A stretch of 64,000 nt of DNA from an uncultured Actinomycetes bacterium (GTDB taxonomy: Bacteria; Actinomycetota; Thermoleophilia; Gaiellales; JAICJC01). The notes under the pieces are model-generated. The model did not search any database and was not told the origin of the DNA. It saw only the letters and a program-made list of their open reading frames with translations. The DNA lies in NCBI GenBank assembly GCA_963706075.1, contig CAVPLP010000002.1, positions 432,758 to 496,757 of the forward strand, given 5' to 3'. Of this stretch, positions 34,490 to 48,540 are shown in pieces. The translations under genes were made by a program, and so were the position numbers. Numbering within the stretch: the first letter of the stretch is position 1; each line of letters opens with the position of its first letter.

Positions 34490-34588
34490 GAGCGTTTGCC
34501 GGGGAGCCCCGCAGGGGCTGAGAGGGTGCCGCAGAGGCGCCGACCCGCGAACCTGATCTGGGTAATGCCAGCGAAGGGATGCACGCAA
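34490..34588 (+). promoter_or_regulatory. TPP (THI-box) riboswitch
   Basis: GGGGAGCCCCGCAGGGGCUGAGAGGGUGCCGCAGAGGCGCCGACCCGCGAACCUGAUCUGGGUAAUGCCAGCGAAGGGA carries the hallmark CUGAGA, ACCUGAUCUGG-UAAU-CCAGCG and AGGGA blocks. It is followed directly by an ABC importer operon. Confidence 0.85.
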
Positions 34589-35294
34589 GTGAGCGAGGTC
34601 GTCGTCACCGACGTGACGAAGAGCTACGGGCCTGTCGAGGCGCTGGGCGGCGTGAGCCTCCGCGCCGGCGCGGGCGAGACCGTCGGGCTCGTGGGGCGCA
34701 GCGGCTGCGGGAAGTCGACGCTGCTTCGCATGATCGCGGGCCTCGACGCCACGGACGTCGGCCGGATCACGGTCGGCGGAGCCGACGACGAGCGCGGCCG
34801 CCTGGAGCACTGTGCCCTCATGCCGCAGGCCGACCTCCTGATGCCCTGGCGCGACGCTGTCGGGAACGCGTCGATCCCGCTCGAGAACGCGGGCGTCGAC
34901 CGGAGCGAGGCACGCCGGCGGGCGGCGGAGCTCTTCGCTGAGCTCGGGCTCGACGGCTTCGAGCGGGCACGATCGTGGGAGCTCTCGGGCGGGATGCGCC
35001 AGCGGGTCGCGTTCGCGCGCACGCTCCTCGCCGAGAAGCCCGTGCTCCTCCTCGACGAGCCCTTCGGCGCGCTCGACGCCATCACGCGCACCGAGATGCA
35101 GGAGTGGCTCGCCGGCGCGCTCCACGCCCGGCCGCGAACAACCGTCCTCGTGACCCACGACCTGGACGAGGCGCTGCGATTGTGTGACCGCGTGGTCGTC
35201 CTGACCGCCCGGCCCGGCCGCGTCGCCTGCGAGCTCGACGGCGCCGGGCCCGGCCGAGTCCGCCCGCGAGCAGGCCCTGGAGACGCTTCGATGA
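34589..35294 (+). CDS. ABC transporter ATP-binding protein, ThiZ-like (frame change at ~35236-35255)
   Basis: GTG at 34589. Walker A GRSGCGKST, signature LSGGMRQR, Walker B LLLDEP. In the +1 frame the end reads ...PAESAREQALETLR with its TGA overlapping the permease ATG (ATGA at 35291-35294). Confidence 0.85.
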
Positions 35295-42237: not shown

Positions 42238-42882
42238 ATGACTGGGTCGAGGAAGCCCCGCAAGGCGTCCTGGCGCGAGCTGCCGCCTGCCGAGATGGCC
42301 GCTCACCTACTCGCCACTCCCACGATCAGCGACGGCGCCTGGACGTCGGAGCCTCGCCTGGCCGGCGAGGCGCGCTCGGCCTTCGTGCGCCGCGTCCTGC
42401 TCGGCGAGACGCCGGAGTCCGAGCCGGAGACGCCCGAGGCCGAGGCCGCACAGCCGGCCGGCCTGAAGCGCGGGTACTACCTTCTGAATACTGACGGGGG
42501 CAACTCCGGGGACCGCTTTGGCCGCGCGGCGATTGGTGCGCTCTTGCGCGCGCGGGCGCGCCGTCTGGTCACAGTGGATCAGATCTCGAAGGAGATCGGT
42601 CCTGCCACCCACAACGTGGCGGAGTACCGAGCGTTGATCGAGGGATTGAAGGTTGCGCGCGGTCACGGCATCCAGCGAATCCGCGTCTACATGGACTCTG
42701 AGCTCGTCGTGGACCAAGTAAATGGTGTCGCCGCGGTGAAGCAAGAACATCTAAAAGAACTGCACAAGGATGCGACCACTCTCGTCGCTCTGTTCAAGAA
42801 CATCCGCATCTCCTGGGTGCCTCGGGAAATGAACGCCGAGGCAGACCAACTCGTGAGGGATGCACTCGGCCGCCGCGACTAG
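42238..42882 (+). CDS. RNase H type-1 domain protein with ~85-aa N-terminal extension
   Basis: 214-aa ORF. C-terminal LLNTDGG...THNVAEYRALIEGLKVA...VYMDSELVVDQVNG...REMNAEADQLV carries the D-E-D-D catalytic pattern. Many A/T-ending codons appear from ~42470 on. Confidence 0.75.
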   Translation: MTGSRKPRKASWRELPPAEMAAHLLATPTISDGAWTSEPRLAGEARSAFVRRVLLGETPESEPETPEAEAAQPAGLKRGYYLLNTDGGNSGDRFGRAAIGALLRARARRLVTVDQISKEIGPATHNVAEYRALIEGLKVARGHGIQRIRVYMDSELVVDQVNGVAAVKQEHLKELHKDATTLVALFKNIRISWVPREMNAEADQLVRDALGRRD

Positions 42883-43103: not shown

Positions 43104-43134
43104 AGAGCTATCGGGGCGCCGAGATTTGAACTCG
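43104..43134. repeat. att-like direct repeat (tRNA-proximal copy)
   Basis: Covers the T-arm and acceptor 3' strand of tRNA-Pro plus 7 nt beyond its 3' end. Identical to 42112-42142. Confidence 0.85.
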
Positions 43135-43184
43135 GGACCTCACCGACCCGAACGGTGCGCGCTACCAGGCTGCGCCACGCCCCG
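43111..43184 (-). tRNA. tRNA-Pro (anticodon CGG)
   Basis: Hand-folded cloverleaf, 74 nt: CGGGGCG-TG-GCGC-AGCCTGGTA-GCGC-G-CACCG-TTCGGGT-CGGTG-AGGTC-CCGAG-TTCAAAT-CTCGG-CGCCCCG-A. C1-G72 is typical of bacterial tRNA-Pro. No encoded CCA. Confidence 0.9.
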
Positions 43185-43536: not shown

Positions 43537-44295
43537 GTGGCCCGCCGGGACGAGATCGTCGCATTCCTCGACGACCACCTCGACGCCGGGGGCTATCCAG
43601 ACGCGCTCCCCGTCGGCCTCCAGGTGGTCGGCGCCCCCGAGGTGCGGAGGGTCGCGACGGGTGTCAGCGCGTCGCTCGAGCTCTTCGAGCGCGCCGCCGA
43701 CGACGGCGCCCAGATGCTGATCGTCCACCACGGCCTCTTCTGGAGCTCGGAGCCGCGCCGGATCGGCGAGCGCGAGCGGGCCCGCCTGCGCTGCCTCTTC
43801 GACCACGACCTGTCGCTCGTCGCGTACCACCTCGCCCTCGACGCCCACCCGGAGGTCGGGAACAACGCCCTCATCTGCCGCGCCCTGGGGCTCGTCGATC
43901 CGGTCGGCTTCGGTGTGCACGGCGACCGCACGATCGGGTTCCTCGCCACCGCGGACCCGCCGCTCCCGCTCGCCGGCCTCCTCGACCGCGTGCGGGCCGA
44001 GATCAACCCCGCGCCGCTCGTCTTCGACGCAGGGCCCGCGTCGATCCGGCGCGTCGCCGTCATCTCGGGCGCCGCCGCGCAGGACGTCCTCCCGGCCGCC
44101 GACGCGGGCGCAGACTGCTTCCTGACGGGCGAGCCGCGCGAGCCCGTGATGGCGCAGGCCCGCGAGGCCGGGATCCACTTCGTGGCTGCCGGCCACTACG
44201 CCACGGAGGTCTTCGGAGTGCGCGCGCTCGGGGAGCTTCTGGCCCAGCGGTTCGGGGTCGAGCACTCGTTCATCGACGTCCCAAACCCGATCTGA
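43537..44295 (+). CDS. Nif3-like dinuclear metal centre protein (YbgI/GTP cyclohydrolase 1 type 2 homolog)
   Basis: GTG at 43537 with TACGGT 6 nt upstream: ...LIVHHGLFW...LVAYHLALDAHPEVGNN...AAGHYATE. Confidence 0.85.
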   Translation: MARRDEIVAFLDDHLDAGGYPDALPVGLQVVGAPEVRRVATGVSASLELFERAADDGAQMLIVHHGLFWSSEPRRIGERERARLRCLFDHDLSLVAYHLALDAHPEVGNNALICRALGLVDPVGFGVHGDRTIGFLATADPPLPLAGLLDRVRAEINPAPLVFDAGPASIRRVAVISGAAAQDVLPAADAGADCFLTGEPREPVMAQAREAGIHFVAAGHYATEVFGVRALGELLAQRFGVEHSFIDVPNPI

Positions 44296-44325
44296 GGGGG
44301 CAACGGCAGATCCCCCGGCGGATTG

Positions 44326-44354
44326 TTGACGCAGTCCGGATGCCTGGGTATGGT
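44326..44354 (+). promoter_or_regulatory. Sigma-70-type promoter: TTGACG - 17 nt - TATGGT
   Basis: -35 at 44326-44331 and -10 at 44349-44354. An ATG follows 6 nt after the -10 box (44361), the same layout seen at several other gene starts here. Confidence 0.5.
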
Positions 44355-44360
44355 GTGAGC

Positions 44361-44387
44361 ATGGACAGCCGATCGGAGCGGGCCTAG
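44361..44387 (+). other. Leaderless 8-codon mini-ORF (MDSRSERA) inside the leader/small-RNA unit
   Basis: ATG GAC AGC CGA TCG GAG CGG GCC TAG, read directly. Its position relative to the -10 box matches the leaderless pattern. Translation is unproven. Confidence 0.25.
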
Positions 44388-44425
44388 CTTGTCCGCCCTC
44401 CGCAAAACCTAGTTCGACCTCTCAG

Positions 44426-44457
44426 CCCATCGAGCGAAGCCGCTCGGTGGGTTTTCT
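44426..44457 (+). terminator. Intrinsic terminator
   Basis: CCCATCGAGCG-AAGC-CGCTCGGTGGG forms an 11-bp stem with one G-U, followed by TTTTCTCGTT. Confidence 0.7.
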
Positions 44458-44482
44458 CGTTCAGCGACCGAAGGGAGCACGA

Positions 44483-44644
44483 ATGGCCAACCATCTGACG
44501 CCGGATGAGCTGTCGAAGGAATACGGCATGAAGCGTGAGGAAGTCATCCGGCTCTGCCACGAGCAGTCCGTCCCGATCTACCACGGAAAGATCGACAAGA
44601 GCCTGTTCCAGGCCGTGCAAGAGGAGTTGAGCCCGTCCAGGTGA
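44483..44644 (+). CDS. Small HTH-like protein (53 aa)
   Basis: ATG at 44483 with GAAGGGAG upstream: MANHLTPDELSKEYGMKREEVIRLCHEQSVPIYHGKIDKSLFQAVQEEL. Resembles excisionase/MerR-type short HTH proteins. Locally lower GC. Confidence 0.5.
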   Translation: MANHLTPDELSKEYGMKREEVIRLCHEQSVPIYHGKIDKSLFQAVQEELSPSR

Positions 44645-44675
44645 CCCGGACGCGGGCGGCGGCCGTAGCCTCTCG

Positions 44676-48540
<3,865 letters not shown>

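Follow-up and report, generated by a model that had tools for sequence, protein, structure and literature searches.

A conserved leader of short reading frames and an intrinsic terminator upstream of a small predicted winged helix-turn-helix gene in Gaiellales, a possible ribosome-dependent attenuator

Background

Attenuators that depend on a translating ribosome are a known kind of control, as are leaderless upstream open reading frames (uORFs) of Actinobacteria. At the Escherichia coli terminator tR2, termination dropped from about 90% to less than 10% when the stop codon of an open reading frame (ORF) was shifted so as to lie 5 bp upstream instead of 28, and did so only if the ORF was translated (PMC4824070). 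PMC5021804, citing Roland et al. 1988, describes occlusion by the ribosome at the pyrBI attenuator. Mycobacterial RNA polymerase terminates at hairpins with U-tracts (PMC3993855), leaderless uORFs and termination-reinitiation overlaps of the form NUGA (N, any nucleotide) are common in Mycobacterium tuberculosis (10.1101/2022.06.01.494293), and leaderless short ORFs regulate operons in M. smegmatis (10.1101/834739). The actinobacterial gene whiB7 has a long leader with an Ala-rich uORF and an antiterminator, in which efficient translation causes termination (PMC10274678). Here we describe a leader of less than 100 nucleotides (nt), located in a 64-kb stretch of contig CAVPLP010000002.1 from an uncultured bacterium of the order Gaiellales (hereafter the window, meaning the whole stretch analyzed), between a strong promoter-like site and a small gene encoding a protein of 53 amino acids (aa).

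The initial annotation of this DNA had pointed to a compact unit of promoter, 8-codon ORF and intrinsic terminator, and had offered two readings, a stand-alone small RNA (sRNA) of about 100 nt or a transcription-attenuation leader gating the small ORF and the following dacB, with a uORF or a ligand in control. Its observation is confirmed as a whole and its interpretation is supported in part. The reading that we favour, though tentatively, is that of a conserved cis-acting 5' leader of a small BldC/Xis-like gene in Gaiellales, acting as a ribosome-dependent attenuator without an antiterminator. A literature search yielded no described Gaiellales leader of this kind, and we did not find the combination of features described elsewhere, namely an apparently leaderless uORF that serves as a hairpin arm, a stop and restart in the loop, a second frame extending to the terminator, no antiterminator, and an order-wide association with a BldC-like gene.

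Results

Conservation of the unit in Gaiellales

For comparison we used the best 80 of at least 577 stretches, taken from species-representative genomes, in which a relative of the small ORF is encoded. The 80 scored loci are species-level and all come from metagenome-assembled genomes of Gaiellales (Thermoleophilia); one further locus, L070, was judged by inspection and is extra to the 80. All of them, L070 included, carry in the same order a promoter, a first short frame (uORF1) with its stop codon in a hairpin, a terminator, and then the Shine-Dalgarno (SD) sequence and ATG of an ORF of 53-59 aa (coordinates in the window are given in Table 1). That 80 other species keep the entire unit is the decisive support for it, the single pieces being only modestly unusual.

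A covariance model, trained on clades B and C only, locates the element where it is expected in nearly all loci; the stem and the uORF are kept in all 80 scored loci. In a search of 531 kb, the model matches 44361-44460 of the window with 20.4 bits (E 0.03). Almost all of the remaining matches are on the minus strand over the same terminators, and in the 531 kb of related DNA searched it never found the element apart from the small ORF. Alignment of the whole leader with MAFFT followed by RNAalifold had recovered the terminator alone (57 sequences; 31 clade-A sequences) and, in clades B and C, a 5-bp helix (P2) besides the terminator. The covariance model, together with folds of each locus and dinucleotide-shuffle controls, was adopted because plain alignment recovered so little beyond the terminator.

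The Rfam 15 search covered the whole window at the gathering threshold, and 44200-44700 also at a relaxed cut-off of E <= 10. The leader region has no match at the gathering threshold, and at the relaxed cut-off there is only a chance match to SorX, which lies within the ORF on its minus strand (11.8 bits, E 6.1). Elsewhere in the window Rfam identifies a single structured cis-regulatory RNA, a thiamine pyrophosphate (TPP) riboswitch aptamer.

Promoter and 5' end

Promoter-like and terminator-like sites were located by a consensus scan of the whole 64-kb window, with shuffled stretches as control. What the initial annotation had called the best sigma-70-like promoter of the window, TTGACG-17-TATGGT, is the sole such match on either strand (shuffle mean 0.1-0.6 per scanned stretch). 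Across the loci the -35 hexamer reads TTGAC(G/T) or TTGCG/TTGCC, and the spacer measures 17-18 nt in 79 of the 80 and 16 nt in the remaining one. A -10 hexamer of the form TAnnnT lies 5-10 nt before the first ATG or GTG at every locus, the distance being 6-7 nt in 64, one nucleotide outside that range (5 or 8 nt) in 4, and 9-10 nt in 12. The window falls in the first group, with the ATG that opens MDSRSERA placed 6 nt past the -10, just as had been noted. Transcription apparently starts at or near the uORF1 start codon, a geometry consistent with a leaderless mRNA.

The promoter spacer itself carries a motif directly 3' of the -35, GCGTCCG / CATCCGTCA (in the window GCAGTCCGG, 44331-44339), which is kept in L007-L036, L037, L047, L052, L056, L059, L063, L065, L074 and L076; in one clade GATCGAT stands just 5' of the -10. 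The spacer motif may be a putative operator, for example for autoregulation by the small helix-turn-helix (HTH) protein. An internal promoter starting from a TTGAC-like motif in the hairpin loop was considered and rejected: inspection by eye found no TAnnnT 16-18 nt downstream, and the window has a single promoter-like site.

The first frame and the leader hairpin

At all 80 loci uORF1 begins with ATG (66) or GTG (14) and no other codon, and its length is 8-11 codons (24, 27, 30 or 33 nt), so that every change is a multiple of three. The encoded peptides differ by clade (MDSRSERA, MDVCEERA, MD[AT]RSE[TQ]A, MITEAETA, MDVSAERAL, VTEALERRAA, MSLAASGGGE, MSTVRTRWGE). Entropy per codon position is 0.87/0.93/0.61, 0.80/1.12/1.04 and 1.05/1.31/1.20 for uORF1, compared to 0.33/0.16/0.86 for the main ORF, which has a strong coding periodicity; the third codon positions of uORF1 show no excess variability over the other positions, and no amino acid or codon was found to be enriched in its peptides across clades. 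A functional micropeptide was therefore rejected, the peptide being unconserved and the third-position pattern absent. Since start, frame, length and place of the stop are kept and the peptide is free to vary, uORF1 appears to be neither a micropeptide gene nor a codon-specific sensor, and it would be the act of translation, or the RNA itself, that matters.

A feature absent from the initial annotation is that uORF1 forms the 5' arm of a leader hairpin and places its stop codon in the apical loop. At least 13 pairs spanning the uORF1 stop are found in 90% of loci compared to 33% of dinucleotide shuffles, and the stop falls in a hairpin loop in 65% of loci compared to 15% of shuffles. It lies at the centre of the hairpin with a mean probability of 0.83 of being unpaired, even as the length of the ORF varies and the position of the stop within the loop differs between clades. 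In P2, compensatory changes occur at 5 of 5 modelled pairs and 97% of cells are paired, in an alignment that was fitted to the model and thus favours pairing. The stems vary by compensation, with no conserved internal loops or bulges in the hairpin. Two bases of the loop triplet, U and G, never vary even though they are unpaired, and the loop and spacer are otherwise variable across clades. For the window, the 105-nt RNA folds at -40.1 kcal/mol, a modest departure from shuffles (z = -2.11).

A second frame that ends at or beyond the terminator

The inventory of short frames in the initial annotation contained uORF1 and missed a second candidate, which runs from the TTG at 44389 to the TAG at 44412 (uORF2; its translation is inferred). 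At each of the 80 loci a TTG, GTG or ATG, and never CTG, occurs between -1 and +5 relative to the stop of uORF1. This restart codon overlaps the stop as NTGA in 43 loci and lies 3-5 nt downstream in the other 37; a separate NTG (2-5 nt on) is present in every locus in which the stop is TAA, TAG, or TGA preceded by C. In L070 the restart takes the form UGAUG. A core resembling an SD sequence (GGAG, GAGG or AGGA) is found 4-14 nt 5' of the restart codon in 58 of 80 loci (72%), compared to 13.8% for all NTGs; the same criterion applied to the main gene is satisfied at 67 of 80 loci.

The 3' end of the second frame appears to be tied to the terminator. Among 46 loci with a stop triplet abutting the terminator stem, that triplet is in the uORF2 frame in 42 and out of frame in 4, or roughly 12 to 4 when counted by lineage (binomial P about 8e-4 by our own calculation). 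In 39 loci the last uORF stop precedes the stem by 1-5 nt, and in 4, the window included, by 13-14 nt; in the remaining 37 it is found past the terminator. It is never further upstream, and 35 of the 37 frames that cross the terminator reach the main SD or start codon. Early stops are absent from the uORF2 frame, compared to 8 and 2 loci for the two other frames.

Contigs encoding the protein were also examined for ends resembling those of a transcript, and all proved to be long genomic contigs. Two leader haplotypes exist among contigs with an identical 53-aa protein (the window; L081-L090). The window haplotype has an in-frame TAG (codon 8, 44410-44412) together with TCA at the terminator foot (44421-44423). 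The L001 haplotype has CAG, AAG or GAG at the first of these places and TGA at the second, and its open frame ends at the stem-abutting TGA. The two changes always co-occur. In another set of loci (L060, L062, L064, L067, L068, L075, L078, L080) uORF2 ends in a second overlapping ATGA or GTGA about 7-10 nt before the stem, and a third frame then crosses the terminator to the main SD or start codon, which suggests a putative three-step relay in that clade.

The intrinsic terminator

The AAGC loop and U-rich tail that had been described for a terminator at 44426-44457 are present; the stem, given there as 11 bp, was found to comprise 12-13 pairs at 44424-44453 (-22.9 kcal/mol). With 13 pairs it is the longest terminator-like stem of the window, all other sites in the 64 kb having 5-7, although the number of terminator-like sites in the 5-kb region (1 found vs 1.3 expected from shuffles) shows no excess. 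The promoter-like and terminator-like sites stand 70 nt apart, each being the strongest of the window. A terminator hairpin followed by a T-run is present at all 80 loci, with energies of -15 to -26 kcal/mol and compensatory stem changes. From the T-run to the main ATG there are 16-75 nt, which by its length leaves no room for a separate promoter, so that the small gene would depend on read-through.

Pairing that could act as an antiterminator was sought between the uORF1 region, or the 3' arm plus spacer, and both terminator arms, and was found to equal that of shuffles (mean z +0.48 to -0.28). An attenuator based on alternative structures was thus rejected, the duplex energies showing no excess complementarity. 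No obvious U-rich tract 5' of the terminator was seen in the sequences read, for which no pause prediction was run. Pairing of the spacer with the main SD, hinted at by a 143-nt fold of the window, seemed unconserved when judged by eye.

The small downstream gene

An SD sequence and the ATG of the 53-aa ORF follow closely behind the terminator, as the initial annotation had it. For the protein, 535 relatives were found in the database; they measure 53-59 aa and share 20 invariant residues (MANHLTP..E...R...C.E...PIYHGK.DK.LF), and the N-terminal MANHLTP and the PIYHGKID motif are carried by the relatives across the Gaiellales loci. Judged by this conservation and by its codon periodicity, the ORF is a real, highly conserved gene.

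Pfam and NCBIfam searches at E <= 0.01 gave no match for the protein, and a profile search of the PDB gave weak matches only (E of at least 0.028), including HTH segments of sigma factors. An AlphaFold2 model (mean predicted local distance difference test score, pLDDT, 88.8) has the order beta-alpha-alpha-beta-beta-alpha (EE-H-H-EE-H). The best Foldseek matches in the PDB are RacA (5i44), BldC (6amk, 6ama), Tn916 Xis and the DNA-binding domain of pSK1 Par, with template modelling (TM) scores of 0.53-0.72, and of 0.63-0.72 to 5i44 and 6amk; the E values of 0.25-2.5, with 0.25-1 among the best matches, at 10-23% sequence identity, are not significant alone for so small a domain, although E values this poor are usual at such a size. 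The protein is thus predicted to be a BldC/Xis-like winged HTH by its modelled fold, and it resembles the small MerR-like winged HTHs of BldC, RacA and Xis in size and topology and differs from them in sequence. The earlier label HTH-like is in this way supported by the predicted fold and not by Pfam or NCBIfam. Taken together, this unannotated and near-invariant protein is a probable regulator.

The exact 53-aa sequence occurs in 346 blocks of a public contig collection, many of them from Danish soil metagenomes (MFD, ERZ250395xx); the source organism is hence common in soils.

dacB and the surrounding genes

The gene behind the small ORF is dacB, encoding PBP4 as the initial annotation had named it, with matches to the family models listed in Table 1. 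Only 31 nt separate the two genes, the consensus scan detected no terminator-like site between them, and dacB is probably co-transcribed with the small ORF in the window. This arrangement is limited to one clade: dacB lies 3' of the small ORF only in L001-L036 and is absent there in other clades, and NIF3, dacB and ligA flank the leader unit only in these loci, the clade of the window. Because the leader persists in clades that have a convergent gene in place of dacB, it belongs to the small gene, with dacB a clade-specific passenger. The proposal that the leader gates dacB is not borne out, the leader staying with the small ORF in clades that lack dacB, and dacB was rejected as the regulated target in general.

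In L037, L040, L043, L049, L050, L052, L054, L059, L063, L071 and L079 a convergent gene lies about 20-160 nt past the small ORF, and the C-terminus that it encodes on the opposite strand looks Ku-like (...DLMEALRASVAAAKKK), by eye only. In the window, dacB (plus strand, end 45935) converges with ligA, the gene for an NAD-dependent DNA ligase (minus strand, end 45932), with a 4-nt overlap at 45932-45935, and the scan shows no terminator-like site at this junction. Upstream, a gene for tRNA-Pro is situated between an RNase H-like gene and NIF3. A mechanically called ORF of 389 aa from 43126 overlaps the tRNA gene, and the NIF3 domain begins only at residue ~140 of it, for which reason the real NIF3 start would be located further downstream.

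Table 1 Features of the leader unit and of neighbouring sequences in the window (positions are those of the 64-kb stretch)
Feature	Position	Strand	Details
TPP riboswitch aptamer (RF00059)	34490-34597	+	63.2 bits, gathering threshold 54.3
RNase H-like gene	42238-42882	+	
tRNA-Pro (CGG)	43111-43184	-	
-35 hexamer	44326-44331	+	TTGACG; consensus scan
-10 hexamer	44349-44354	+	TATGGT (TAnnnT); consensus scan; spacer to the -35 17 nt
uORF1	44361-44387	+	8 codons and stop, MDSRSERA-stop (ATG GAC AGC CGA TCG GAG CGG GCC TAG)
Leader hairpin	44363-44415	+	Minimum-energy fold
Leader hairpin, P1	44363-44368 with 44409-44415	+	
Leader hairpin, P2	44374-44383 with 44391-44402	+	
Candidate SD of uORF2	44375-44378	+	GGAG; within uORF1
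Apical loop	44384-44390	+	CUAGCUU; uORF1 stop and first two bases of the next start codon
uORF2 (candidate)	44389-44412	+	LSALRKT-stop (TTG TCC GCC CTC CGC AAA ACC TAG)
Terminator	44424-44463	+	Stem 44424-44436 with 44441-44453, loop AAGC, tail TTCTCGTTCA at 44454-44463
SD of small gene	44470-44477	+	GAAGGGAG
Small gene	44483-44644	+	53 aa, MANHLTPDEL...PIYHGKIDKSLF...; predicted small winged HTH
dacB (PBP4)	44676-45935	+	Peptidase_S13 2.4e-76, TIGR00666; start codon predicted

Discussion

A possible ribosome-dependent attenuator

We propose the following model for the leader. The strong sigma-70-type promoter would start the RNA at, or within a few nucleotides of, the AUG or GUG of uORF1, and ribosomes would load onto this leaderless end and translate the 8-11 codons of uORF1. 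Translation would open the hairpin and deliver the ribosome to uORF2 with its SD-like GGAG, where the stop of uORF1 and a restart codon that overlaps it or lies next to it (NUGA, or UUG, GUG or AUG 3-5 nt later), both within the apical loop, would allow reinitiation. The leader hairpin may meanwhile pause the polymerase, as we infer from the example of the trp leader. As uORF2 extends to the terminator foot or continues across the terminator, a ribosome following close behind the polymerase would cover the 5' arm of the terminator and permit read-through into the small gene, and in the clade of the window into dacB too. If translation were absent, slow or uncoupled, the terminator would form and an RNA of about 95 nt would be released.

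Because there is no antiterminator helix, the only cis-encoded control would be the physical presence of the ribosome, and the signal is probably the general status of translation or of its coupling to transcription and not one amino acid. The uORF-controlled leader of the initial annotation gains support in that the unit never parts from the small ORF, lying 16-75 nt away, and the uORF frame is kept; the ligand that it had allowed for finds none, with no conserved internal loops and no Rfam match. A more specific version of the attenuator reading is more doubtful. It is conceivable, if rather unlikely, that a relay of two or three tiny frames makes ribosome loading on the 5' end the license for the polymerase to pass the terminator. 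Such a relay would report the capacity for leaderless translation, or transcription-translation coupling, to a BldC-like regulator throughout the order, with a link to PBP4 in one clade.

Several points weigh against the attenuator reading. We know of no demonstration of tight transcription-translation coupling in this phylum. Many of the 80 loci are related, and locus counts therefore overstate the number of independent events. The energy of the leader-hairpin fold is barely beyond that of shuffles (mean z = -0.68), and in the 12 loci with 9-10 nt between the -10 and the start (clade D and a few others) the RNA may have a leader of 2-3 nt. In these GC-rich loci an NTG is found between -1 and +5 at 58.5% of all stop triplets, and the restart codon is UUG, a poor and rare start in Actinobacteria, in 59 of 80 loci; the UUG(A)C common to the loci might be a motif in RNA or DNA that serves some other purpose. 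Given this background and the dominance of UUG, the restart codon at the uORF1 stop was downgraded to a suggestive point. The GGAG also lies within a conserved stem, by which its role as an SD is confounded with structure. Finally, the position of the uORF2 stop varies between clades, and in the window uORF2 ends 11-12 nt before the stem, at the edge of the 10-15 nt that a ribosome covers (PMC4824070).

Alternative explanations

The unit might instead be a stand-alone or dual-function sRNA of about 95-100 nt, encoding one or two micropeptides and acting in trans, with the HTH gene reached by incidental read-through. The spacing of 70 nt between the strongest promoter-like and terminator-like sites of the window fits such an RNA, the terminated RNA must be made in any case, and attenuator RNAs and leader peptides act in trans elsewhere, as two reports on rnTrpL/peTrpL describe (PMC6614838, PMC7298713). 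An sRNA is nevertheless unlikely, as no unpaired seed is conserved across clades (loop and spacer vary except for the stop and restart triplets), the peptides are unconserved and lack coding-type selection, and the element, which never strays from the small ORF in the 531 kb, always sits 16-75 nt from its ATG with no room for a promoter.

It is also possible that the terminator is a constitutive damper or insulator, for example against transcription from NIF3, that the hairpin is a 5' stabiliser and that the frames are by-products. The lack of an antiterminator, the high background of restart codons and the unconserved peptides agree with this, and open frames are the default in GC-rich DNA, early stops being expected in only ~18% by our estimate. 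A mere damper would leave unexplained, however, that the first codon is ATG or GTG at every scored locus, that the uORF1 stop is held in the apical loop despite lengths of 24, 27, 30 or 33 nt and a shifting position within the loop, that stem-abutting stops fall in frame 42 to 4, and that SD-like cores stand before the restart codon at 72% against 14%. The terminator is moreover kept in clades with quite different upstream neighbours, and we consider this explanation quite improbable.

A classical stalling attenuator of the trp/his/ilv or whiB7/erm type, in which a ribosome stalled by uncharged tRNA or an antibiotic brings about an antiterminator, would have the layout of the whiB7 leader in its favour (a uORF, a Rho-independent terminator and a small transcription factor; PMC10274678). 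It is very unlikely, since neither terminator arm finds more than chance complementarity, the peptides share no enriched amino acid or codon across clades, and there is hardly space for position-specific stalling in an 8-codon ORF that stops within the loop.

As for a switch operated by a factor or ligand, in which termination would change once the hairpin or its UUGA(C)/UGA..UUG loop is bound by a metabolite or by a protein, perhaps the small HTH protein, or in which the HTH protein binds the spacer DNA, the invariant though unpaired U and G of the loop triplet, the conserved GCGTCCG / CATCCGTCA motif and the general tendency of small regulators to be autoregulated are outweighed by the lack of an Rfam match and of conserved internal loops or bulges in stems that vary by compensation, by a predicted fold that resembles DNA-binding and not RNA-binding proteins, and by a loop motif whose position within the loop differs between clades, which makes this explanation highly improbable.

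Significance

If the ribosome-dependent attenuator is real, it would be a compact (<100 nt) and deeply conserved case of leaderless translation used as a regulatory input, of termination-reinitiation between micro-ORFs, and of terminator occlusion by a ribosome outside the enterobacterial pyr operons, in a lineage that is very abundant in soil and poorly studied. It touches on the question of whether actinobacterial transcription-translation coupling is tight enough for ribosomes to control intrinsic terminators. Should this reading be wrong, a new conserved leader or sRNA family remains as a candidate for RNA-family databases. The near-invariant 53-aa protein, predicted to be BldC/Xis-like, merits study in itself.

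Comparison with known systems

Amino-acid attenuators (trpL, hisL, ilvB; the ilvB-II motif of Corynebacterium, PMC10272879) share with the Gaiellales leader a leader ORF followed by a terminator. Like hairpin 1:2 of trp, the hairpin formed by the leader ORF could, in our view, pause or synchronise the ribosome and the polymerase. The amino-acid attenuators differ in having runs of regulatory codons, a 2:3 antiterminator and a biosynthetic operon downstream, none of which is present here.

The whiB7 leader (PMC10274678) is alike in phylum, in the order of promoter, uORF, Rho-independent terminator and small transcription factor, and in its variable uORF peptide. In comparison, the leader described here is shorter than 100 nt, shows no enrichment in Ala, lacks an antiterminator and is predicted to work in the opposite direction, and the gene behind it is predicted to encode a winged HTH and not a WhiB protein.

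With the Cys "ribulon" (10.1101/834739) and the uORFs of M. tuberculosis (10.1101/2022.06.01.494293) the leader has in common an unannotated short ORF at the 5' terminus that controls, or here would control, the next gene by where the ribosome stands. The 4-nt NUGA overlaps of stop and start in M. tuberculosis have been read as termination-reinitiation (10.1101/2022.06.01.494293), and similar overlaps are found here. The Cys short ORFs differ in their polycysteine tracts and in a helix that sequesters the ribosome-binding site and thus acts on translation, whereas the present leader has a terminator and at most one Cys, in one clade (MDVCEERA). M. tuberculosis differs in having few canonical terminators and in that the second ORF rarely starts with UUG, which is dominant here.

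In the pyrBI (pyrL) and pyrE (rph) attenuators of E. coli, as in the Gaiellales leader, a leader frame reaches or crosses an intrinsic terminator placed between promoter and gene, with no antiterminator helix, an arrangement of the terminator seen at 80 of 80 loci here. The pyrL frame runs across its terminator, and Bonekamp et al. 1984 reportedly described the rph frame of the pyrE attenuator as ending at the foot of the terminator. The frame geometry fits this scheme at all 80 loci, translation of the frames being predicted, and read-through by means of a ribosome that blocks the hairpin is established for the pyr attenuators and predicted for the present leader. The systems share no sequence homology; the genes downstream encode a pyrimidine enzyme there and a probable regulator here, and with no U-rich pause evident there is no sign of UTP sensing in Gaiellales. 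What most sets the Gaiellales leader apart from pyrBI and pyrE is its use of two tandem frames, the first of them apparently leaderless and embedded in a hairpin.

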